Shown one piece after another: positions 1 through 39,477 of a stretch of DNA of 40,736 nucleotides. Source of the DNA: a virus; the UHGV virus genome UHGV-2023338; one strand, 5' to 3'. Made by a program: the position numbers and the translations under genes. Positions within the stretch are counted from its first letter, which is position 1; each line of letters begins with the position of its first letter. The notes beneath the pieces are model-generated. The model searched no databases. It was not told where the DNA came from and saw only the letters and a list, made by a program, of their open reading frames with translations.

Positions 1-516
1 ATGAAATTTAAAAAATGTCTTCTGCCTGTGGCAATGTTAGCGTCATTCACTCTGGCAGGATGCCAGTCAAATGCTGACGATCATGCCGCCGATGTTTATC
101 AAACCGATCAACTGAATACCAAACAAGAAACTAAAACCGTTAATATTATTTCCATTCTTCCCGCAAAAGTTGCCGTAGACAACTCCCAAAATAAACGGAA
201 CGCACAAGCCTTCGGCGCGCTTATTGGCGCAGTCGCTGGCGGTGTTATCGGCCACAACGTCGGTTCTGGCAGCAATTCCGGAACGACGGCAGGGGCAGTT
301 GGCGGCGGAGCTGTAGGCGCGGCAGTGGGTTCTATGGTGAATGATAAAACCTTAGTGGAAGGTGTTTCTTTAACATATAAGGAAGGCACCAAAGTGTATA
401 CCTCTACCCAGGTGGGTAAAGAGTGCCAGTTTACGACAGGTTTAGCCGTTGTTATTACCACAACGTATAACGAAACGCGTATTCAGCCAAATACTAAATG
501 TCCTGAAAAGAGCTAA
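1..516 (+). CDS. Glycine-zipper outer-membrane lipoprotein (SlyB/YcfJ-like); probable host-flank gene
   Basis: Signal peptide with lipobox LAGC; Gly/Ala-rich stretch GALIGAVAGGVIGHNVGSG typical of glycine-zipper 17-kDa-antigen-type lipoproteins; opposite strand to adjacent phage lysis genes. Confidence 0.55.
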   Translation: MKFKKCLLPVAMLASFTLAGCQSNADDHAADVYQTDQLNTKQETKTVNIISILPAKVAVDNSQNKRNAQAFGALIGAVAGGVIGHNVGSGSNSGTTAGAVGGGAVGAAVGSMVNDKTLVEGVSLTYKEGTKVYTSTQVGKECQFTTGLAVVITTTYNETRIQPNTKCPEKS

Positions 517-531
517 TAATCAGGAGGAGTC

Positions 532-1071
532 ATGAAGAAAGTTTTTCTTTGCGCCATCTTGGCCTCCTTAAGCTATCCGGCTATCGCCTCATCATTGCAG
601 GATCAACTCTCTGCTGTAGCAGAAGCTGAACAGCAAGGTAAAAATGAAGAGCAAAGGCAGCATGACGAATGGGTCGCGGAGCGCAACAGGGAAATCCAGC
701 AAGAGAAGCAACGTCGCGCAAATGCCCAGGCCGCCGCTAACAAAAGAGCGGCAACGGCAGCGGCAAATAAGAAAGCTCGTCAGGATAAACTGGACGCCGA
801 AGCCTCTGCGGACAAAAAACGCGATCAAAGTTATGAAGATGAGCTACGCAGCTTAGAGATTCAGAAACAAAAACTGGCGCTGGCAAAAGAAGAAGCCCGC
901 GTTAAGCGAGAAAACGAATTTATCGATCAGGAACTGAAGCACAAAGCTGCGCAAACCGATGTGGTGCAATCTGAAGCTGACGCCAACAGAAATATGACTG
1001 AAGGCGGTCGCGATCTGATGAAAAGCGTGGGCAAAGCAGAAGAGAACAAATCGGACAGCTGGTTTAATTAA
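532..1071 (+). CDS. Secreted, highly charged coiled-coil protein of unknown function
   Basis: N-terminal signal peptide (MKKVFLCAILASLSYPAIA), K/E/R/A/Q-rich remainder; RBS AGGAGG 8 nt upstream; 16-nt spacing after previous gene. Confidence 0.5.
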   Translation: MKKVFLCAILASLSYPAIASSLQDQLSAVAEAEQQGKNEEQRQHDEWVAERNREIQQEKQRRANAQAAANKRAATAAANKKARQDKLDAEASADKKRDQSYEDELRSLEIQKQKLALAKEEARVKRENEFIDQELKHKAAQTDVVQSEADANRNMTEGGRDLMKSVGKAEENKSDSWFN

Positions 1072-1758: not shown

Positions 1759-2381
1759 AAAAGCACCTTACTGGCGGTGATATACCGCGCGCGCCGGTCA
1801 TCGATGCCGTTCTGCCCACCATTAATGATCTGCGTGACGCGCACCATATCGCCGGTGTACTTCATACAGCCCTTGGTGGCGAAGAACCACGCCGCGCTGC
1901 GGGCCGCATATTCGTCCTGCGTCAACAGCTCAGGATTCTCCAGCAGGTCCACTTTTAGACCGTTTCCGCAGTCACGATAGTTATTCAAACCGGTAATCTG
2001 GATAAGCCCGCGCCCACGGTAAAACCAGCCGTCAGTCGGCCCGTTGTTCCCCATGCGCTTGCTATACACCAGATTGGCGATCGCACGCTGGCGCTCCAGC
2101 GGTAACGATGGCTCACCAGCACGACGGCCCAGCGCATTGGCCTGGCCCTGAGTGAGGCGCCCGGAACGGACGAATCCCGCCAGCCCGGTCACGCTGTAGT
2201 TGAAGTTCTCCTGCAGCCGGGTGAAGCCTCCAGACTCATGCCCGACCTGAGCAATAAACATTGCCTGATCTTCTGGTTTGCTGATACCAAACTCTTTCAT
2301 CGCAGAAGTTATATGCGAGAACCAGCGTGCGGCCAGCGCCTCGCTAATACCAGCAGCTCGCTGGAATTGTTTAATCTCCAT
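1755..2381 (-). CDS. Endolysin, glycoside hydrolase family 19 (chitinase-like) type
   Basis: Motifs [12 protein letters not shown] and [11 protein letters not shown] resemble GH19 catalytic core; sits between holin and spanin genes. Confidence 0.8.
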
Positions 2382-2679
2382 GTTTAGACCTCGTTATTTT
2401 GAAAATCTGAACGACGTTACCGCGAGTTTTAAGAACCGCAGCAAGCATGACAGCATTGATAATGACCTCAGATAAATCCACAGCCATTGGCGTGCGTAAC
2501 CAGATTGCATAGACGACACGAACAGGAATACTGGCCGCAGCAACAATAAGGAAATAAGCAAGCCACCCTCCCCACCTTCGATGTTGTGAACCGTTACGCC
2601 GGAATGTGACAACACGAATTGCTATGCCAGTACAAATAAGTGCATTGGTGATAAGCAAAACAAGCTCATTAGTTACCAT
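2371..2679 (-). CDS. Holin (three predicted TM segments)
   Basis: 102-aa protein with three hydrophobic helices and charged C-terminus, immediately upstream of endolysin (overlapping). Confidence 0.55.
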
Positions 2680-5955: not shown

Positions 5956-6059
5956 GTTAAATCTCCAGATAGTCGCAGCACCCGTTGCGCCGCATATCTG
6001 GTTATTCTATTACCAGAAAAACCATATATGGATATATAGCTCATGAATACGAACAGATA

Positions 6060-6074
6060 TTACCTTTCAGGTGA
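6060..6074. promoter_or_regulatory. Operator-like palindrome TTACCTTTCAGGTGA (14/15 match to TTACC-N5-GGTAA)
   Basis: Read directly from sequence; about 40 bp upstream of LexA box. Confidence 0.35.
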
Positions 6075-6111
6075 TTCGCAAAACGTGCTGGATAGCAAAC
6101 AAATTATTTGC

Positions 6112-6130
6112 TACTGTATATTTATACAGT
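6112..6130 (+). promoter_or_regulatory. LexA (SOS) box
   Basis: TACTGTATATTTATACAGT = CTGT-N8-ACAG with AT-rich spacer, near-identical to E. coli LexA consensus TACTGTATATATATACAGTA; 21 bp upstream of ATG at 6151; -35-like TTGCTA at 6108-6113. Confidence 0.7.
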
Positions 6131-6150
6131 TATTGCTTGGAGAAGATAAG

Positions 6151-6408
6151 ATGCAGCAGTATCACTATCCACTGGAAGACGGATTTACCGAAAGGATTCA
6201 CACGCCGGGAGGCGTCAGGTCACTGGTGGAGGGATCGCACTTGATGAAATTACTCCGGGCTCTCGATAAGGATGGATTTAATGTCGATGGCCCACTTGCC
6301 GAACTGACTGCACTGATTAACTACGTCACCAGCTCACAGATGTCTATGCAGGATCTGCAAACACATCTCGACTATTGTGCCGAACAATTACGAAAACAAA
6401 TCAGGTAA
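6151..6408 (+). CDS. Hypothetical 85-aa protein, SOS-box-associated moron (candidate antirepressor)
   Basis: Internal Met of track ORF 6043-6408 preceded by GGAG RBS; only plus-strand gene inside minus-strand virion operon; function inferred from context only. Confidence 0.45.
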   Translation: MQQYHYPLEDGFTERIHTPGGVRSLVEGSHLMKLLRALDKDGFNVDGPLAELTALINYVTSSQMSMQDLQTHLDYCAEQLRKQIR

Positions 6409-6431
6409 ATTTAAGGGCCGCGAAAGCGGCC

Positions 6432-6445
6432 TGTGACATGTCACA
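6432..6445. repeat. Perfect 14-bp palindrome TGTGACATGTCACA (copy 1 of 3)
   Basis: Directly read; immediately preceded by hairpin GGGCCGC-GAAA-GCGGCC (6415-6431). Confidence 0.8.
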
Positions 6446-6451
6446 CTCAAG

Positions 6452-6592
6452 CTATGACAAACCTATGTACCCTGCTACACCAGATAATATCAAAACAACT
6501 GCTACAGCAAATTCACCGTCTTCAATGATACATTTACGATTCATAACGCCAAGGGCAACAAGCACAAATACAACAAGAATAAAAGCAATCAT
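6452..6592 (-). CDS. Small hydrophobic ORF (46 aa), possible membrane peptide
   Basis: Hand translation MIAFILVVFVLVALGVMNRKCIIEDGEFAVAVVLILSGVAGYIGLS; AAGGA RBS 6 nt upstream; not in track (under 60 aa); could be spurious. Confidence 0.25.
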   Translation of the reverse strand: MIAFILVVFVLVALGVMNRKCIIEDGEFAVAVVLILSGVAGYIGLS

Positions 6593-6601
6593 TTCTCATC
6601 C

Positions 6602-18636: not shown

Positions 18637-18687
18637 CTTCTTTCTCCATTAGTGGGTCTGTTACGACCCACAGGTTAATAACAGGCG

Positions 18688-19680
18688 TTACACCACACGG
18701 GCTTCTGTTTCCAGAAGCGCATCAGTCTCACGGATTGGTACACCACGGAATGAAGTCCACCACTCGCCTTCTGTCTCTTTTACGCTGATCGCCAGAGATG
18801 TTTTCTCCAGAGATTGCAGATCAAGAGCCTGGCCTACAGTGCGGTTCATGTAGAACACCGGGCGGCCCATGCCACGGTTTGGAATGCGATGCAGTGCTTT
18901 AACCATCAACTTCGCAATATTTGCTGCAGAGGAAGGTTCTGAAAGATTGCTGACATCGATGTTTGCAATGCGAACAACATAACGCCAGTCACGCAGAGCA
19001 AGCCCGTTGTCCCATTTGTAATGGGTACGGTAGCCTTCGTACTTGCCGCCATTCGCATCTTCCAGTGTCACCTGGCCTTTATCTTCCATCTGGATGCCAG
19101 CCTTCTGCCCTTTCGGGAAGATGCCATGCACGGTGTTTTCGCCCCACACCACTAACCAGATTGAGGTGTTATCTGTACCCGTGCCACCAGCATCAATGAT
19201 GTTCTGAGCATTACCCGCAGACAGGCTGGAATAGCGGGAGGACAGTCCCATAAACTGCTGAGGGTTAACGCTGGAATCACCATAAAACAGCGTCTGCGCC
19301 ATCTGCTGATTCATCGCTTCAATAAATGCGCGGTCTTCAGACAGGCGGAATTCGGCGGTATTGCCGTTCAGATCAGCCAGTGACTTATCGACTTCAGCAT
19401 AGGTTTCCAGCATGCCAACGGAATCGGTTACCTGCACTGTGGTTGATTTGCTTGGCTGTACGCCATAGTTCAGCAAACGCCAGGTAGCTGAAGGTAAACC
19501 AGAACGAATGGTGGTTCGGTGTCCGGTAGGAAGGTTCCCTTCGACAAAAGGCATATCCTGAAGGATCGGGTTAGTTTGACCGAGAAGCTCGATAATCTTA
19601 TCGACTTTCCCGTTTGGATCGACGCGCTTACCCCAGTCAGCCAGCGTTAGCGCAGTTAAGCCTTTAACAGCCATTGTCAT
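18688..19680 (-). CDS. Major capsid protein
   Basis: 330 aa downstream of scaffold-like acidic protein and portal; size and order typical of HK97-fold major capsid proteins. Confidence 0.75.
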   Translation of the reverse strand: MTMAVKGLTALTLADWGKRVDPNGKVDKIIELLGQTNPILQDMPFVEGNLPTGHRTTIRSGLPSATWRLLNYGVQPSKSTTVQVTDSVGMLETYAEVDKSLADLNGNTAEFRLSEDRAFIEAMNQQMAQTLFYGDSSVNPQQFMGLSSRYSSLSAGNAQNIIDAGGTGTDNTSIWLVVWGENTVHGIFPKGQKAGIQMEDKGQVTLEDANGGKYEGYRTHYKWDNGLALRDWRYVVRIANIDVSNLSEPSSAANIAKLMVKALHRIPNRGMGRPVFYMNRTVGQALDLQSLEKTSLAISVKETEGEWWTSFRGVPIRETDALLETEARVV

Positions 19681-19688
19681 TTCCTCTC

Positions 19689-20390
19689 TTATTTGCCATA
19701 GAGCACTTCGGCCGCACTACGCTGGCCTTCATTACCACCGGTGACCATGCCATCTTCAGACATCGCCTTTCCGATTTTCACGAACGTCTTGACCAGATCA
19801 GGGTGATTACCCAGCCCGGTGGTGTTCAGATATTCTTTGAGTTCAGGTGTCCCGAACTGGTCAAGCGCACGCTGTGCGGCGCTAAGGTTAGAAATCAACT
19901 TGTCGCCACCGATTTCTTTGTCAGCTTTTACATCCGCAGCCCACTGCTCGGTTGTTTTCTGCCAGGCTTCTGCCTGGCGCTGCTGAACACCTGCCAGAAT
20001 CTTCGGATAAGCATCAACCAGCTTTTGCGCTTGCTCGTTGGTCAGGTTAAGTTCTCGCGCCACCGGCTCGAATTCCTTCAACGCTTCTGTATCCAGCTCT
20101 ACGCCTTCGGCAGCCTGAAACTCGTACTTCTCCGGCGCACCCTCCGGTTTATCGTCGTCATTTTTTTCACCCTGCTTATCGCTTTCAGGCTTTTTGTCAT
20201 CAGCAGGTTTATCGCCATCAGCAACAGGTTGTGGCTTATCACCTTCCTGTTGTGATGGATCACCAACTGGAGCAGGGTTATCACCTGCAGGCGCTGACGG
20301 TTCTGACGCAGCCGGAGCTACTCCACCATCGACTGGTTGCTCATTGCAAAGACGGCGATACAGCAAACGCTCAAATAAACTCATGATCAC
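19689..20390 (-). CDS. Scaffolding protein (acidic)
   Basis: 233 aa, very acidic Pro/Asp/Glu-rich N-half and helical C-half; located between portal and capsid genes. Confidence 0.55.
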   Translation of the reverse strand: MIMSLFERLLYRRLCNEQPVDGGVAPAASEPSAPAGDNPAPVGDPSQQEGDKPQPVADGDKPADDKKPESDKQGEKNDDDKPEGAPEKYEFQAAEGVELDTEALKEFEPVARELNLTNEQAQKLVDAYPKILAGVQQRQAEAWQKTTEQWAADVKADKEIGGDKLISNLSAAQRALDQFGTPELKEYLNTTGLGNHPDLVKTFVKIGKAMSEDGMVTGGNEGQRSAAEVLYGK

Positions 20391-23008: not shown

Positions 23009-23085
23009 GTGGCATTAGCTCAGTTGGACAGAGCAACCGCCTTCTAAGCGGTTGGTCGCAGGTTCGAATCCTGCATGCCACGCCA
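23009..23085 (+). tRNA. tRNA-Arg (anticodon UCU), phage-encoded
   Basis: Cloverleaf folded by hand: acceptor GTGGCAT/ATGCCAC, D-arm GCTC/GAGC, anticodon stem ACCGC/GCGGT with loop CUUCUAA, T-arm GCAGG-TTCGAAT-CCTGC, encoded CCA. Confidence 0.9.
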
Positions 23086-32741: not shown

Positions 32742-32942
32742 TCAGCTTGAATGTTGTGGGGAGGAATTAATCATGATCTGCTTAATCTCTGCCCTGATAC
32801 GACGGTTTGATTCCATGGTGCACTCAACACAGTGTCCGTTGTAAACCCAGCGTTCACTGTCATGTCCGTGCTTACATGTTTTTCCGGTGTAGTAGCGTTT
32901 AAGTCCGCGCTTTGCGGCATCAATACGTGTAATGATTTCCAT
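32742..32942 (-). CDS. Small Cys/His zinc-binding protein (cII-position)
   Basis: Start trimmed to internal Met with AGGG RBS; 66 aa; CKHGH...CVEC motif; function not recognised. Confidence 0.4.
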   Translation of the reverse strand: MEIITRIDAAKRGLKRYYTGKTCKHGHDSERWVYNGHCVECTMESNRRIRAEIKQIMINSSPQHSS

Positions 32943-33023
32943 GGTAAGCCCTGCTATTAGTATTGGGATTACGGTCATTTTGTGCTGACACAAAAAAAAG
33001 ATCAACCAGATTTGGTTTTTTAT

Positions 33024-33092: not shown

Positions 33093-33323
33093 TCATGAGT
33101 AGAAGAAGTATGCCAGTTCTGCTTTTGAGCGCAGCCATTGTCTTGTTTTACAGGCTTTAAAAAGCCCATTCATCAATACTTTACCTGGCATTTTGCGCTT
33201 ACCTGTTAAGTGAGTCTGGATATAGTGACTCGTCGTTCCGGCTTCCTGTGCGAAGGCTTCACGCTCATCCGGAGTAAGTGCAAGCCAGTGCTTTTTGAAA
33301 TCGAAATGTTCGTTATCGCTCAT
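33093..33323 (-). CDS. Cro-like small HTH regulator
   Basis: 76 aa; HTH-like segment AFAQEAGTTSHYIQTHLTGKRK; first gene of rightward (minus-strand) early operon leading to replication genes. Confidence 0.5.
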   Translation of the reverse strand: MSDNEHFDFKKHWLALTPDEREAFAQEAGTTSHYIQTHLTGKRKMPGKVLMNGLFKACKTRQWLRSKAELAYFFYS

Positions 33324-33477
33324 AGCTATTGCCTGATATTTATTTCAGATAATAAATATTCACCCATAAGGTAACAAAAATCAAGGATAGTTACCTATGG
33401 GGTGCATTTACCTGTTGGGTAATATTGCTTTAAATTGAATCATCTACTGATTCATATATGAGGCGATTTTCCAGAAA
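33324..33477. promoter_or_regulatory. Immunity-region divergent promoter/operator region
   Basis: 154-bp AT-rich spacer between divergent regulators; perfect operator TTACCTGTTGGGTAA (33408-33422) plus two imperfect sites (33360-33374, 33391-33405). Confidence 0.6.
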
Positions 33478-34062
33478 ATGAAAAGTATCCAGGACGTCCG
33501 CAGGCAAAATCTCAACGACTTGATCGACCGTGAATTCAATGGTGTTCAGACGCGGATGGCAGAAAAACTTGGAACTCAGGCAAATCTGGTAAACCGCTGG
33601 GCTCTTGGCAAGAAGGTTATCGGCGACCAGGTTGCGCGAAAAATTGAAGCTGCCGCCAATAAACCACGTAACTGGCTTGATATCGATCGCTCGCTTTCTC
33701 AGGAAGGTTTTCAGCCTGTCGGCCCGAGCGATATAGGTCAGCTGGCGGCTCACAACCTGGAACGCTGGATGAGCGAAAGCCGCGACCTTTCAACACAGGG
33801 AAAACTTCACCGCGCATCCGGCGTCGCCCAGGTGACAATCAGCCGCCTGTTAAACAATGAAGTCAGCGTTTCCATTTCCACCCTGGAGAATGTTGCATCC
33901 GCATTCGGGCGTCACGGCTATGAATTACTGATTCACCCGCACGACCCTGCGACTATCAACTATGATCGCTCGCGCTACGCATTGTTACCTGAAACAGAGA
34001 AGGCAAAGATCGAAAGTTACATTGAATTTGTCATCAACCAGAACGAAAAAAGCAAACAATAA
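33478..34062 (+). CDS. CI-like prophage repressor candidate (two HTH regions, no evident autopeptidase domain)
   Basis: 194 aa; XRE-type HTH MAEKLGTQANLVNRWALGKK and second HTH-like ASGVAQVTISRLLNNEV; no Ala-Gly/Ser...Lys S24-type motifs seen; followed by terminator. Confidence 0.55.
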   Translation: MKSIQDVRRQNLNDLIDREFNGVQTRMAEKLGTQANLVNRWALGKKVIGDQVARKIEAAANKPRNWLDIDRSLSQEGFQPVGPSDIGQLAAHNLERWMSESRDLSTQGKLHRASGVAQVTISRLLNNEVSVSISTLENVASAFGRHGYELLIHPHDPATINYDRSRYALLPETEKAKIESYIEFVINQNEKSKQ

Positions 34063-34082
34063 AATCATATTTTTCAGTAAGT

Positions 34083-34108
34083 AAGCCGCCTCATGGCGGC
34101 TTTTTTAT
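34083..34108 (+). terminator. Rho-independent terminator after repressor gene
   Basis: AAGCCGCC-tcat-GGCGGCTT followed by TTTTTTATT. Confidence 0.65.
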
Positions 34109-34119
34109 TGCCTATGCGA

Positions 34120-34196
34120 TTACCTTATGGGTAATTTTTTTAACTCATATCTATTGACATCAAACCAGATACGCATAATTATTACCTCAACGGTAA
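34120..34196 (+). promoter_or_regulatory. PL-like promoter flanked by two operator palindromes
   Basis: TTACCTTATGGGTAA (34120-34134), TTGACA (34154-34159), -10-like TAATTA, TTACCTCAACGGTAA (34182-34196). Confidence 0.5.
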
Positions 34197-34215
34197 CAGA
34201 CCGAGGTAACAAGTT

Positions 34216-34365
34216 ATGCAGTGGAAAATCATCAACGGTTGGTACTGCGTTACTGCATGCGGATTCATGAGCTGGAAGTTCCGCACCTTACAGGAAGGCA
34301 TTAAGTGGGCTTTCGTCAGCAAAGAAGCTCGCGATGTAGCCAACGATAACGAGATATGGGAGTAG
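34216..34365 (+). CDS. Small Trp-rich ORF (49 aa), first gene of early-left operon
   Basis: Hand translation MQWKIINGWYCVTACGFMSWKFRTLQEGIKWAFVSKEARDVANDNEIWE; GAGG RBS; not in track (under 60 aa). Confidence 0.3.
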   Translation: MQWKIINGWYCVTACGFMSWKFRTLQEGIKWAFVSKEARDVANDNEIWE

Positions 34366-34373
34366 GTTAGCAA

Positions 34374-35408
34374 ATGAGTGAATTATCAATCATCGAAATC
34401 ACACCAGACATGGCACCAAGAATTTACGTTGAAAAAGGGCTGGAAAAGTTTCTCGAGCAGATCCGTGAAGGTGTTAATGAAGTGCCTGACATTAGCACAG
34501 ACAAAGGCAGAAAGCGCATTGCATCTCTGGCTGCGAAGGTTTCAAGAAGTAAAACAGCGGTAGAAAAACCAGGACGTGATTATCTGAAACGCCTGAAAGA
34601 ACAGCCGAAAGTAGTTGAAGCAGAGTTACGACGCTTCGTAACCGAATGCGATCGGCTTCGTGATGAAGTACGCCGCCCACTCACCGAGTGGGAAAATGCT
34701 GAGAAATTACGCACTGAAGCACTGCAACAACGCCTGACAAATTTGCGAGCACTAGCTGACGTGATCGATCTCTCCGGAAACTACTTGCCATCATCTGATA
34801 TTCAGGAACGAATTCAAGAGGCTAAATCAGTAGCACTTGATGAAAGTTGGCAGGAGTACGCAGCAGAAGCTGGAGTAGCCAAGGATTCAACCATCCAGAA
34901 ACTGGAAGAATCACTCGCAGTAGCTCAAAAACGCGAGCGTGAAGCCGCTGAGCTGGAGCGACTTCGCAAAGAAGCGGAGGAAAAAGCGCGCATTGAGCGA
35001 GAAGAGAATATCCGCCGGGAAGCTGCTGAACAGGCCAGGCTCGAAGCTGAACAAAAAGCGAAAGCTGAAATTGAGGCTGCGGCACGCCTGGCGGCGGAAG
35101 AAAAAGCACGTGCAGAAGTAGCAGAACGTCAGCGAATTGAAGCAGAGCAGCGTGCACGACGCGAAAAAGAAGAAGCCGTTGCCGAGGAACGCCGACGCCA
35201 AGAGGCGGCAGAAAAAGCCCGCCTTGACGAACAGAAGCGTATCGCCGACGAAGAAGCGCGCCGAGCTGCAGATAAAGAGCATCGCCGTACCGTTAACCGC
35301 AGAGTAATCGCAGATCTGATAGCCCAAGGCATTCACGAAGAATTCGCGCAGAAAGCAATGTTGGCTATCGCTGGCGGCAAAGTGCAGGACGCGTATATCA
35401 AATATTGA
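34374..35408 (+). CDS. Hypothetical protein with long Glu/Ala/Arg/Lys-rich coiled-coil repeat region
   Basis: 344 aa; residues about 190-300 are TolA-like EAEEKAR-type low-complexity repeats. Confidence 0.5.
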   Translation: MSELSIIEITPDMAPRIYVEKGLEKFLEQIREGVNEVPDISTDKGRKRIASLAAKVSRSKTAVEKPGRDYLKRLKEQPKVVEAELRRFVTECDRLRDEVRRPLTEWENAEKLRTEALQQRLTNLRALADVIDLSGNYLPSSDIQERIQEAKSVALDESWQEYAAEAGVAKDSTIQKLEESLAVAQKREREAAELERLRKEAEEKARIEREENIRREAAEQARLEAEQKAKAEIEAAARLAAEEKARAEVAERQRIEAEQRARREKEEAVAEERRRQEAAEKARLDEQKRIADEEARRAADKEHRRTVNRRVIADLIAQGIHEEFAQKAMLAIAGGKVQDAYIKY

Positions 35409-35409
35409 G

Positions 35410-35715
35410 GTGGGTATGAACGTTAATCAGCAGAAAAATCTTCAAAAAATCATGCTGGCATTCGACAAGGACTACCGTCTGTCAGAACAGCTATATGACC
35501 GACAAGTTGAACTGATTGAGAGTATCCGGCTTCATCAACTGGCATCAACTTTCGACGTTGTAACAGTTAAAGGCGTTCGCCAGGAAGTACTGGAGGCCGC
35601 TAAAGACAGCCCTGAGTTCGAAGAACTAATGGATGCCTACCGGCGCGAGGCAATGGCAATTATCGCCCGCTGGGATCTGGCTGATCAGCTTGATGGGCAG
35701 AGGGACGCGGCATGA
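35410..35715 (+). CDS. Hypothetical protein
   Basis: 101-aa ORF, 1-nt gap after previous gene and 4-nt overlap with next. Confidence 0.45.
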   Translation: MGMNVNQQKNLQKIMLAFDKDYRLSEQLYDRQVELIESIRLHQLASTFDVVTVKGVRQEVLEAAKDSPEFEELMDAYRREAMAIIARWDLADQLDGQRDAA

Positions 35716-36533
35716 AACCGGGAATTTATTTCGACATCAGCAACGAAGACTACCACGCCGGTGACGGCGTGAGTAAGTCGCAACTGGACATGGTTGCCAA
35801 GAATCCGGCGCTTCTTAAATGGGTTCAGGCAGCACCAGAAGACGAAGAGAAAAAGTCTGCACTGGATATGGGAACCGCATTGCACTGTCTGCTTCTGGAG
35901 CCTGGAGAGTTCGACAAACGCTTCATTGTTTCACAGAAATTCGATCGTCGGACGAAACAAGGTAAAGCTGACGAAGAGGAATTTCTTCGTGATGTGGCGG
36001 ATATGGGGATTACGGTACTTGATGCCGAGCAGTGGCGGAAACTGGAGCTGATGCGTGATAGCGCAATGGCTCACCCGGCGGCACGCTGGATGCTGGAAGC
36101 ACCTGGTTACTGCGAAGCATCAATGTACTGGAACGATGAAGAGACGGGGGAGTTGTGCCGAATTCGTCCAGACAAATGGCTGAACGAGCACAACGTGATC
36201 GTCGACGTGAAAAAGGTTGCAGATATGGACCGTTTTGCACGCCACATCGAGGAATTCCGCTACCACGTGCAGGACGCAATGTACCGCGAAGGCGCAATGA
36301 GGGTTACTGGTCAGCCGCATGGTTTTTTCTTTCTTGCCGTGAGCGAAAGCATTGATTGTGGTCGGTATCCGGTACGCGTGTTCGAGCTGGATGCGCAGGA
36401 TGTCGATGCCGGGCACGCTCTGTTCCGCCGGGATCTGAATACCTATCACGAATGCCGCATCAATGATGAATGGGGCGGTGTGGAAATCATTAAACGCCCT
36501 GAGTGGGCACGCAAACAGGATATGTACATATGA
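35712..36533 (+). CDS. PD-(D/E)XK-family exonuclease (exonuclease VIII/RecE C-terminal-like)
   Basis: 273 aa; candidate active-site block VIVDVKKV; translationally coupled (ATGA) to downstream annealing-protein gene. Confidence 0.6.
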   Translation: MKPGIYFDISNEDYHAGDGVSKSQLDMVAKNPALLKWVQAAPEDEEKKSALDMGTALHCLLLEPGEFDKRFIVSQKFDRRTKQGKADEEEFLRDVADMGITVLDAEQWRKLELMRDSAMAHPAARWMLEAPGYCEASMYWNDEETGELCRIRPDKWLNEHNVIVDVKKVADMDRFARHIEEFRYHVQDAMYREGAMRVTGQPHGFFFLAVSESIDCGRYPVRVFELDAQDVDAGHALFRRDLNTYHECRINDEWGGVEIIKRPEWARKQDMYI

Positions 36534-37471
36534 GCAACGACATCGCAAACATCAACGCACCAGTAGACACAGCAATCGCTGGAACTGCTGCAACTATTTT
36601 CAGCCCAGACGGCTTGAACCAACTGATGAAATTCGCCGAGGTAATGGCGCAAAGCCGCGTAACGGTACCGGCGCACCTCGCCGGGAAACCAGCTGATTGC
36701 ATGGCCGTGGCAATGCAGGCTGCGCAGTGGGGAATGAACCCGTTTGCCGTGGCTCAGAAAACCCATGTTGTGAACGGCACGCTAGGTTATGAAGCCCAAT
36801 TAGTAAACGCAGTTATCTCAACGATGTCGCCAACAAAAGATCGCATCAACTACGAGTGGTTTGGGCCGTGGGAACGCGTGATCGGTAAGTTTGTTGAGAA
36901 AACATCCAAAAACGGCAATCCATATATCGCACCAGGCTGGACTCTAAAAGACGAAGAAGGCTGCGGTGTTCGCGTATGGGCAACCATGAAGGGCGAGGAT
37001 CAACCTCGAGTGCTTGAGTTAATGCTGTCTCAAGCACAGGTAAGAAACTCCACACTTTGGGCCAGTGATCCGAAACAACAACTCGCATACCTTGCGACAA
37101 AACGCTGGTCTCGCCTGCACTGTCCTGACGTAATCATGGGCGTCTACACCCCAGACGAATTACAGGAAACGGCACCGCGCGTTGAGCGAGACATTACTCC
37201 GCAAACGACAACTGCTGCGGGAATGAACAGTCTGATCAACGCTAAAACAGTGAAAAAGCCTGATGAGCAAACGCGTAAAGCGGATAGCCGTGATCCAGAA
37301 GAAATGCTGATGGCCTTTACCAGCGCAGCGATGAATTACAGCACTGTCTCCGAACTGGATAAGGCTTACAAATACATTGCACAAAAACTTTCAGATGATG
37401 ACGAACTGCTGGCAAAAGCCACCGACGTTTACAGCGTTCGTCGGGAAGAATTAAACGAAACATCTATGTAA
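36530..37471 (+). CDS. ssDNA-annealing protein, RecT-like
   Basis: Start trimmed to Met overlapping exonuclease stop; 313 aa; pairing with exonuclease typical of RecET-type modules. Confidence 0.5.
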   Translation: MSNDIANINAPVDTAIAGTAATIFSPDGLNQLMKFAEVMAQSRVTVPAHLAGKPADCMAVAMQAAQWGMNPFAVAQKTHVVNGTLGYEAQLVNAVISTMSPTKDRINYEWFGPWERVIGKFVEKTSKNGNPYIAPGWTLKDEEGCGVRVWATMKGEDQPRVLELMLSQAQVRNSTLWASDPKQQLAYLATKRWSRLHCPDVIMGVYTPDELQETAPRVERDITPQTTTAAGMNSLINAKTVKKPDEQTRKADSRDPEEMLMAFTSAAMNYSTVSELDKAYKYIAQKLSDDDELLAKATDVYSVRREELNETSM

Positions 37472-37520: not shown

Positions 37521-37769
37521 ATGAAAGGTGCATTAGGTAAGAAGGAACTCCTGGCGGTGGTGCCACTGTCATGGAGCACTATCGACCGTATGGAGCGCGC
37601 AGGTGAATTTCCTAAACGCTGGTATATCACTGACAAACGCTGCGCATGGAACCGTGACGAAGTTGAGCGTTGGCTTGATGAACGTCAGGCAGCAAGCCCG
37701 GCAGAGTTCCAGGGTAAAAAGCCTCCTGTTCAGCAACGTGTATATCGTCCTGTGAGCAACGCTGCATGA
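37521..37769 (+). CDS. AlpA-family HTH regulator / excisionase candidate
   Basis: 82 aa; LLAVVPLSWSTIDRMERAGEFPKRWYITDKRCAWNRDEVERWL resembles AlpA/Xis-type motif. Confidence 0.6.
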   Translation: MKGALGKKELLAVVPLSWSTIDRMERAGEFPKRWYITDKRCAWNRDEVERWLDERQAASPAEFQGKKPPVQQRVYRPVSNAA

Positions 37770-37878
37770 GTGCGCTGCTAAGGCACTGGAGCAAATGGTC
37801 AGGATGGTACTTATTCCTGGCCTCTGTTTCAGCATGGCTTTATCTGCTGGCATTAATTTTCAGAGAGGGTTGGATTAA

Positions 37879-38178
37879 GTGAGAAAGTTAAGCCGACTTG
37901 AAAAATATCACATGAACAAGGTTTCAATGCGCAGCCCTTCAAAGATTGTCGCCGTTACTCCTGCGGCGATAGAGATCGAAAAACGCGCGATTGAAAGAGA
38001 GAAAAAAGGGCAATTCCGCATTGCCGCTCACCTTTGGCTTCAGTGTATGGATGTTGCTTCTGGTGATGTTGAACGTGCAAGGATCGCGGTTCGCAGGGAC
38101 CAATGTATCACAAAAGGTAACGGCCTTCGCCGTGGCGACTATAGCGGCATAGGATGTTGTGGGGTGGTTTATGACTAA
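37879..38178 (+). CDS. Hypothetical small protein (ANR-family-like regulator candidate)
   Basis: GTG start at 37879 or ATG at 37912; segment EKKGQFRIAAHLWLQCMDVA resembles small prophage regulators; weak. Confidence 0.35.
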   Translation: MRKLSRLEKYHMNKVSMRSPSKIVAVTPAAIEIEKRAIEREKKGQFRIAAHLWLQCMDVASGDVERARIAVRRDQCITKGNGLRRGDYSGIGCCGVVYD

Positions 38179-38821
38179 GAAATACACACTAATCTATGCA
38201 GATCCACCCTGGGTATACCGGGACAAAGCCGCAGATGGTAATCGCGGTGCCAGTTTTAAATATCCGGTTATGAGTGTGATGGATATCTGCCGCCTTCCTG
38301 TGTGGGATTTGGCCGATGAAAACTGTCTGTTGGCCATGTGGTGGGTGCCAACACAACCACTCGAAGCGCTAAAAGTTGTTGAAGCCTGGGGATTCCGTCT
38401 GATGACCATGAAGGGCTTCACGTGGATAAAATGTGGTAGTCGACAACCAGATAAACTGGTTATGGGTATGGGGCACATGACTCGCGCCAATAGTGAAGAT
38501 TGCCTGTTTGCGGTAAAGGGAAAGCTACCTACGCGCATTAATGCAGGGATCGTTCAGTCATTTACCGCACCGCGGCTTGAGCATTCAAGAAAACCAGATA
38601 TCGTTCGTGAAAAACTTGTGCAATTGTTAGGCGATGTTTCTCGCATTGAACTGTTCGCCCGCCAGACGTCTCATGGCTTCGATGTTTGGGGTAATCAGTG
38701 CGAAGACCCGGCAGTGCAACTACACCCTGGATACGCGTTGGATATTGGCGGATTAACAAATGCATTCAGCAATGCTCCGGTGTCACCAATAGACAACCAG
38801 GGGCGGGAGCGTGCAGCATGA
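38171..38821 (+). CDS. DNA N6-adenine methyltransferase, MT-A70 family
   Basis: 216 aa from ATG; N-terminal LIYADPPW catalytic motif; no adjacent restriction enzyme gene, so orphan methylase. Confidence 0.8.
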
Positions 38822-39477
38822 ACCTATATCAACGCATCAATGGCGCTGACTGGTGCAATATCTTCGTCGTCGGCGATCTGCATGGGTGCTACACGCTGCT
38901 GATGAACGAACTCGACAAAGTTTCATTCGACCCGGCGCGCGATTTACTTATTTCCGTTGGTGACCTTGTTGACCGCGGCGCTGAAAACGTCGAATGCCTG
39001 GATTTGATTACTATGCCGTGGTTCCGAGCTGTTCGTGGCAACCATGAGCAGATGATGCTGGATGCACTGGTCAACGGCGGAAGTTTCGGACATTGGATGT
39101 CAAACGGCGGTGGATGGTGGCACCAACTTGATTCTGAGCAGGATGTGCAACTCAAATACCTTCTGCCAAAGATTACCAACCTCCCGATGATTATCGAACT
39201 GGTTACCGGCAATAAGAAGGTCGTCATCTGTCACGCAGACTACCCGCACAACGAATACGCATTCGATAAGCAAGTACCAGAAGAAATGGTGATATGGAAT
39301 CGTGAGCGGGTTAGCGACGCGCAGGACGGTATTGTCTCGGAGATAACCGGTGCCGATTTGTTCATCTTCGGTCATACGCCAGCACATCACCCACTGGTGT
39401 ATGCAAACCAGATGTACATCGACACCGGCGCAGTGTTCTGCGGAAATCTGACGCTTACCAAAGTCCAGGAAGGATAG
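38818..39477 (+). CDS. Serine/threonine protein phosphatase, lambda PP (orf221)-like
   Basis: 219 aa; metallophosphatase motifs GDLHGC, GDLVDRG, GNHE; near-collinear with lambda phosphatase; ATGA overlap with methylase. Confidence 0.9.

Follow-up and report, generated by a model that had tools for sequence, protein, structure and literature searches.

The DNA stretch analysed here, hereafter the window, is the 40,736-nucleotide virus genome UHGV-2023338. Its positions 33478..34062 are spanned exactly by an open reading frame (ORF) of the plus strand, running from ATG to TAA and coding for 194 aa according to the ORF list of the window, in agreement with the length given in the first-pass annotation of this locus. 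On the evidence of its sequence, the product is the immunity (lysogeny) repressor Rep of a temperate podophage of the phiV10/epsilon15 type, genus Uetakevirus. The N-terminal residues MKSI are invariant across many homologues, indicating that the ORF is a real gene. The window region is 98% identical to Escherichia phages phiv142-3 and phiV10, and the window is largely collinear with phiV10, ZX5 and other Escherichia coli members of Uetakevirus, the epsilon15/phiV10 temperate podophages.

Rep is 99.5% identical to phiV10p40, ZX5 ORF21, the phiv142-3 protein and other annotated repressors, and 99–100% identical to the “putative repressor” of E. coli Uetakevirus phages. Identity amounts to 75–78% with homologues from Enterobacter phages, to about 45% with those from Klebsiella, and to about 42–43% with the repressors of Salmonella phages epsilon15, SPN1S and SPC32H; more distant homologues include those of Serratia and Citrobacter. 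In PHROGs the protein falls into “transcriptional regulator/repressor” families (phrog_8, E 4.9e-27). Overexpression of ZX5 ORF21 abolished free phage and lowered endolysin transcripts by 99.99% and holin transcripts by 99.97% (PMC9782041). Lysogens of ZX5 spontaneously release 1e7 plaque-forming units (PFU)/ml, and 1e9 after mitomycin C treatment. Prophages of the phiV10 species were induced 21- and 47-fold by microcin Mcc1229, which is among the bacteriocins called DNA-damaging in the title of the paper (bioRxiv 10.64898/2026.05.26.727859).

The protein carries two helix-turn-helix (HTH)-like regions, as the first-pass annotation had noticed and as the GenBank note on the same phiV10 protein, “two helix-turn-helix motifs,” already states. 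Pfam assigns aa 104-147 to HTH_3 (PF01381; E 1.2e-9, exceeding the gathering score), and aa 20-61 give another, less significant match of HTH type (YdaS_toxin/HTH, E 3e-4, under the cut-off); HTH_3 itself is reported in two stretches of the protein. Residues 1-190 align with the “Repressor” chain 5D50_A (phmmer E 3.5e-42, 42% identity) of the PDB entry entitled “Rep-Ant complex from Salmonella-temperate phage,” and residues 89-190 align with 5D4Z, the C-terminal fragment of SPC32H Rep (Rep 92-198). All three segments of the protein align to SPC32H Rep without large gaps. Identity is highest in the DNA-binding domain (DBD, 54%) and the C-terminal tail (50%), lower in the middle domain (34%) and lowest in the linker (22%). 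Published work divides SPC32H Rep into an N-terminal DBD, a middle dimerisation domain (MDD) and a C-terminal CAD “TetDloop,” the latter both tetramerising Rep and binding the antirepressor Ant (PMC9986798). The two HTH-like regions are present as first proposed, and the second of them corresponds in SPC32H to the MDD and not to a second DNA-binding domain (PMC9986798). Judged from these alignments and from the operator and antirepressor data given below, Rep has every sequence-level hallmark of the SPC32H Rep/Ant family.

Assignment of the ORF to another XRE-family protein, for instance an antitoxin of the HigA/VapI type, was considered as an alternative to the immunity repressor. Pointing in this direction are NCBIfam hits to HigA (E 1.2e-3) and to HipB-like antitoxins, all of them weak and far short of the cut-offs, and the label “plasmid maintenance system antidote protein VapI” in the BP9 record. 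However, no toxin gene is adjacent, the gene occupies the position of cI between divergent early operons with operator palindromes on both flanks, and the homology to a structurally and functionally characterised repressor extends over the full length. In addition, overexpression of ZX5 ORF21, 99.5% identical to Rep, turns lytic genes off (PMC9782041), and an antitoxin function is very improbable.

Search for an autopeptidase domain in Rep

The hidden Markov model search of Pfam that returned HTH_3 gave no match of Rep to Peptidase_S24 (PF00717), even with the threshold relaxed to E<=1. The dipeptides AG, CG and GG occur nowhere in the 194 aa, so the protein has no Ala-Gly or Cys-Gly linker site; the lack of an Ala-Gly site and of a Ser/Lys dyad pattern had previously been judged by eye. 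Searches of 5.8 billion proteins recovered 86 Rep homologues, all of about 194 aa, and PF00717 is present in none of them according to precomputed Pfam domains.

The predicted structure is consistent with these results. The S24 domain is a beta fold, and the AlphaFold2 monomer model of Rep, built on 25 database homologues with the SPC32H row not included, is all helix without strands (mean pLDDT, the predicted local distance difference test score, 79.5), the C-terminal tail being modelled with low pLDDT. In a Foldseek comparison with the PDB, the top 12 matches of the model are all SPC32H Rep (5D50 and 5D4Z, E down to 1.4e-10), and HTH proteins of the XRE family come next. The matches listed (best 50 of 391) contain no S24 structure, such as the catalytic domains of LexA, cI or UmuD; the sole LexA-labelled match among them, 2kpj, has a 94-residue target chain with 79 matching alignment columns.

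Judged by sequence and model, Rep is without an S24 autopeptidase and does not have the features of an autocleavable repressor of the LexA/cI type. The earlier proposal that the repressor is non-cleavable agrees, at this level, with the lack of an S24 match, a cleavage site and a beta fold. If Rep had a cryptic or strongly diverged autopeptidase and cleaved itself under RecA stimulation, the DNA-damage inducibility of relatives having the same Rep would also be accounted for, this behaviour being equally expected of a cleavable repressor. Such a domain is, however, opposed by the null results at E<=1 and in the 86 homologues, by the all-helical model devoid of S24-fold matches and by the missing AG and CG dipeptides, and the three Rep domains of 5D50/5D4Z account for the whole length of the protein, making this explanation extremely unlikely.

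An ImmR/ImmA-type pair was also considered and rejected, given that no Pfam or PHROG match to COG2856/Peptidase_M78 (ImmA/IrrE) was obtained in the four flanking ORFs, two per side (32742..33005, 33093..33323, 34216..34365 and 34374..35408).

The antirepressor gene, its LexA box and the operators

The window encodes a counterpart of the SPC32H antirepressor, matching the PDB chain 5D50_E, “Anti-repressor protein” (E 4e-46). Its gene, ant, is located about 27 kb from rep, outside the immunity region. As in SPC32H, it has the tailspike gene on one side and the last of the large structural genes (824 aa) on the other. The protein has no Pfam or NCBIfam family match and is labelled “hypothetical protein” in E. 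coli phage and genome records; in the searchable literature, the small Ant of E. coli phages remains unannotated. Full-length Rep homologues occur in 36 phage records, and 35 of these contain Ant as well, the sole exception being a 138-kb record with rep near its end.

The start codon of ant is preceded, at a distance of 20 bp, by a LexA box, TACTGTATATTTATACAGTT, which shares 18 of its 20 bases with the E. coli consensus TACTG(TA)5CAGTA. In the window there are three copies of the core CTGT-N8-ACAG (0.57 expected), of which only that at ant has an AT-only spacer. The other two, at 18658 and 23201, have GC-rich spacers, are apparently coding or tRNA-adjacent, and were taken as chance occurrences. 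The box upstream of ant is conserved in a nine-phage alignment comprising phages of E. coli, Salmonella, Enterobacter and Klebsiella, and the conservation of ant together with its LexA box suggests that the gene is in use. The exact 20-mer was not found in the other loci, since the spacers differ by one to three bases while the CTGT and ACAG halves are conserved. ZX5 has the same small ant, a LexA box, TACTGTATAAATATACAGTT, and the upstream palindrome described below. As read by eye, the LexA box appears to overlap the −10 element of ant (TACTGT, 6112..6117, 17 bp after TGGATA).

SPC32H and its sibling SPC32N differ in the LexA box of ant by a single C>A change, located in the ACAG half-site (alignment columns ~166-185), which supports the box being functional. 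Kim and Ryu (2013) reportedly found that SPC32H Rep is uncleaved during SOS, that ant is repressed by LexA, and that SPC32N is constitutively lytic through a single base change in the LexA site; the aligned sequences show this change directly.

Neither a second Ant copy nor a Bro-N antirepressor was found in the window besides ant itself. A Bro-N-type “anti-immunity/anti-repressor” gene is located directly downstream of ant in phiV10 (19646..20230), ZX5 (1774..2469) and Tyrion, and is missing at the corresponding place in the window (6409..6600). Residues 150-180 of the phiV10 Bro-N protein are 45% identical to the N terminus of Ant over 31 aa (E 1e-6), a likeness that hints at a shared Rep-binding motif.

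The palindrome TTACC-N5-GGTAA, with at most one mismatch, occurs 13 times in the window (0.74 expected) and 18 times in SPC32H (0.65 expected); 12 of the 13 sites are intergenic, as read from the ORF map. Three sites form an OR-like cluster between rep and the divergent cro-like gene, one of them carrying two mismatches, and their layout matches that of SPC32H sites 34390/34407/34437, with spacings of 17 and 30–31 bp. A promoter-like site on the minus strand (33377..33349) overlaps this cluster. Downstream of the rep terminator, two OL-like sites, 62 bp apart like those at 33604/33666 in SPC32H, bracket a promoter (TTGACA-17-AATTAT, 34154..34182) directed into the recombination/early-left genes. 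The corresponding sites are entered as “protein_bind: repressor” in the GenBank record of epsilon15, whose repressor entry cites HHpred 5d50_A. A further palindrome, TTACCTTTCAGGTGA, precedes the LexA box of ant by about 40 bp and is conserved in 9/9 aligned phages; it may serve ant or only the divergent tailspike promoter.

The half-site is common to the E. coli, Salmonella, Enterobacter and Klebsiella members, even though their Reps are only ~42–45% identical. This fits the conservation of NLVNRW, the likely recognition segment, in both the window Rep and SPC32H Rep. A single half-site and a highly conserved Ant, combined with diverged Reps, suggest that cross-immunity or cross-induction may take place within the genus.

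Outside the OR- and OL-like clusters, TTACC-N5-GGTAA sites are found at 6060, 22671, 23776, 26631, 26649, 31015, 31077 and 33023. Some of these putative Rep operators precede the small-terminase/packaging and structural operons, at the same places as in SPC32H. The coordinates of the features are listed in Table 1.

Table 1. Features of the predicted Rep/Ant switch, with positions in the window and the evidence for each
Feature	Positions	Strand	Evidence
rep, predicted lysogeny repressor of SPC32H-Rep type, 194 aa, no autopeptidase domain recognised	33478..34062	+	ORF; 5D50_A match; no PF00717
Rep N-terminal HTH DNA-binding domain (predicted), aa 1-70	33478..33687	+	Weak HTH match; 54% identity to SPC32H Rep; NLVNRW conserved
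Rep middle HTH_3-like domain, aa 89-152, dimerisation domain in SPC32H Rep	33742..33933	+	HTH_3 aa 104-147; aligns to 5D4Z; 34% identity
Rep C-terminal tail, aa 153-194, putative tetramerisation/Ant-binding region (CAD, TetDloop) by homology	33934..34059	+	50% identity to SPC32H Rep
Putative intrinsic terminator of rep	34083..34108	+	8-bp GC-rich stem and T run
OR-like cluster between rep and divergent cro-like gene: TCACCCATAAGGTAA (33360), TTACCTATGGGGTGC (33391), TTACCTGTTGGGTAA (33408)	33360..33422		Pattern searches
OL-like operators: TTACCTTATGGGTAA (34120), TTACCTCAACGGTAA (34182)	34120..34196		Pattern searches; equivalents annotated in epsilon15
Divergent cro-like early gene, 76 aa	33093..33323	-	phrog_35 “transcriptional repressor,” E 5.7e-13; 77% identical to SPC32H_042
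ant, predicted small antirepressor, 85 aa	6151..6408	+	88% identical to SPC32H Ant; 5D50_E match; same locus as SPC32H
LexA box TACTGTATATTTATACAGTT, core CTGT-N8-ACAG at 6114..6129	6112..6131		Motif search; conserved in 9 phages
Rep-type palindrome TTACCTTTCAGGTGA in the ant/tailspike divergent intergenic region	6060..6074		Pattern search; epsilon15 repressor-site annotation

Proposed induction route

Two publications outline how the SPC32H system works. The form of Rep that binds DNA is the tetramer, binding by the dimer being weak; Ant, likewise tetrameric, engages two Rep dimers and so takes the Rep tetramer apart (PMC9638917). A review groups SPC32H with Salmonella prophages in which the outcome of SOS is not repressor cleavage; in these, LexA self-cleavage leads to antirepressor synthesis, and the repressor is inhibited by protein-protein contact (PMC7380047).

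A similar route may be proposed for the window phage. In the lysogen, a Rep tetramer would occupy the TTACC-N5-GGTAA operators on both sides of rep and keep the cro-like/replication and recombination operons silent, and it probably also acts at similar sites before other lytic transcription units. Host LexA would hold ant off by binding the box overlapping the promoter of this distant gene. Because Rep is without a LexA-like autopeptidase, RecA* would not inactivate it directly. Following DNA damage, RecA*-stimulated self-cleavage of LexA would allow the 85-aa Ant to be made, which would dock on the C-terminal region of Rep and split the tetramer into weakly binding dimers. With the tetramer lost, the early and lytic promoters would fire.

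This full account, a non-S24 Rep inactivated by LexA-controlled Ant as in SPC32H, is assigned a probability of about 85%. The direct evidence consists of the domain content of Rep and its lack of S24, the homology of both proteins to the solved Rep and Ant, a LexA box and operators that are present and conserved, and synteny. Non-cleavage of Rep, LexA binding, Rep-Ant binding and tetramer disassembly would follow by analogy with SPC32H and the literature. The antirepressor-based induction favoured in the first-pass annotation gains support from the homology to SPC32H Rep, the cognate ant gene in the window and the LexA box upstream of it.

Several points weigh against this account. Overall identity to SPC32H Rep is only 42%, the middle domain having 34% and the tail 50%, and the binding of Ant by the window Rep is extrapolated across that distance. 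The statement that SPC32H Rep escapes cleavage in SOS comes from secondary citations and from the abstract of Kim and Ryu. The AlphaFold2 model superposes loosely on full-length 5D50 (template modelling score, TM, 0.37–0.42), a value attributable to uncertain domain placement and an uncertain C-terminal tail in the monomer model; the C-terminal half alone gives TM 0.61–0.69 to 5D4Z. For ant, a simple scan for promoters did not detect a sigma-70 consensus. Finally, the antirepressor tested in ZX5 is the Bro-N-type protein and not the small Ant (PMC9782041).

In another explanation, the Ant-LexA module is present but the diverged Rep is not its target, or not the sole one. The main cause of induction would then lie elsewhere, for example in a Bro-N/KilAC-type antirepressor that acts in trans from a second prophage of the same host, or in the loss of Rep by dilution or proteolysis. 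It draws on the presumed Ant-binding tail of Rep being 50% identical to its SPC32H counterpart, compared with 88% for Ant, and on the extra Bro-N “anti-repressor” beside ant in phiV10, Tyrion and ZX5, whose C terminus has the 31-aa motif in common with the Ant N terminus. Overexpression of the ZX5 Bro-N antirepressor reduced the prophage titre (PMC9782041). On the other hand, the Bro-N gene is missing from the window, leaving Ant as the only recognisable antirepressor there, and the occurrence of Ant with Rep in 35/36 phage records, together with the conservation of ant and its LexA box, implies use. The rep and ant modules are also present in similar total numbers of complete E. coli genomes (539 and 529). 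Induction mainly by another factor is accordingly improbable, and inactivation of Rep by LexA-controlled Ant is preferred.

A wider scheme is possible but doubtful. In it, silencing by Rep would extend over the whole genome and include ant; with ant repressed by Rep and Rep inactivated by Ant, the two would form a loop of mutual inhibition gated by LexA. A common operator, together with an Ant conserved at 88%, would allow cross-immunity and cross-induction between Uetakevirus prophages of different genera, and the Bro-N antirepressors of phiV10 and ZX5 may have borrowed the N-terminal motif of Ant for the same Rep surface.

Distribution, genome context and comparison with known systems

At an identity of at least 95%, the rep module (33324..34215) is present in 539 and the ant module (6040..6410) in 529 of 5,426 complete E. 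coli genomes, showing that the Rep/Ant system is common and not unusual. The RefSeq product names are “helix-turn-helix domain-containing protein” for rep and “hypothetical protein” for ant, and the present results support re-annotation of the two genes as Rep and Ant. The proposed route would explain how DNA damage is sensed without a cleavable repressor in an E. coli prophage type carried by about one-tenth of complete genomes. For obligately lytic reporter or therapeutic phages of the phiV10 type, the targets would be rep, for deletion, or the LexA box, for mutation. The case is well supported but ordinary: the protein has been deposited, annotated as a repressor and tested in ZX5, and the Rep/Ant mechanism and structures of the genus-mate SPC32H were published in 2013–2016. 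No new biological question is opened.

Several other genes of the window were noted. An ORF of 344 aa (34374..35408, plus strand) separates the recE-like gene from the small ORF that follows OL; the C-terminal two-thirds of its product are very rich in E, A, R and K and coiled-coil-like, and it belongs to phrog_1376 of unknown function, with no Pfam match. It is present in phiv142-3 and apparently missing from phiV10 and most relatives, where matches cover 62% of the query. Separate genes for a RecE-like exonuclease (273 aa) and a RecT-like protein (322 aa) are located at 35712..37471 (plus strand), while the phiV10 record has a single fused “recET.” Upstream of the integrase, the region 37521..39477 (plus strand) encodes an AlpA-like regulator, a PerC-like activator, an MT-A70 adenine methylase and a calcineurin-like phosphoesterase. 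A tRNA-Arg gene with anticodon TCT (23009..23085, plus strand) is found as in phiv142-3 and SPC32H. Genes for a glycine-zipper/TraT-like protein (1..516, plus strand) and a DUF5384 protein (532..1071, plus strand), which are not in phiV10, adjoin the lysis genes. The latter two may be lysogenic-conversion or exclusion cargo, since phiV10 and SPC32H carry O-antigen-modifying genes in roughly this place.

Overall, the system resembles most closely the Rep/Ant switch of SPC32H (5D50, 5D4Z), from the same genus, with the same gene order and three-part Rep architecture, ant at the same locus beside the tailspike gene with a LexA box at equal distance upstream, the TTACC/GGTAA half-sites and the OR/OL layout. 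Unlike SPC32H, the window phage has E. coli as host, a Rep of only 42% identity, and two clear OL sites compared with three. With the “putative repressor” proteins phiV10p40, ZX5 ORF21 and phiv142-3 Orf43, the window Rep shares 99.5% identity and an identical context. The phiV10, ZX5 and phiv142-3 records differ from the present annotation in leaving the small Ant as “hypothetical protein,” and phiV10 and ZX5, but not phiv142-3, have the extra Bro-N antirepressor that the window is without.

Coliphage 186 Tum/CI and Gifsy/Fels-2 similarly combine a non-cleavable repressor with a LexA-repressed small antirepressor acting by protein contact (PMC7380047), but no sequence relationship of these systems to Ant or Rep was detected. 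The SPC32H type also differs from them by tetramer disassembly (PMC9638917). Like lambda cI, P22 C2 and LexA, Rep has an N-terminal HTH and SOS-linked induction, and, as for the cI and C2 repressors, its gene is located between divergent early promoters with multiple operators. In contrast to these proteins, it has no recognisable S24 C-terminal domain, Ala-Gly site or predicted beta fold, and, unlike in lambda and P22, SOS would be sensed indirectly, via LexA and Ant.

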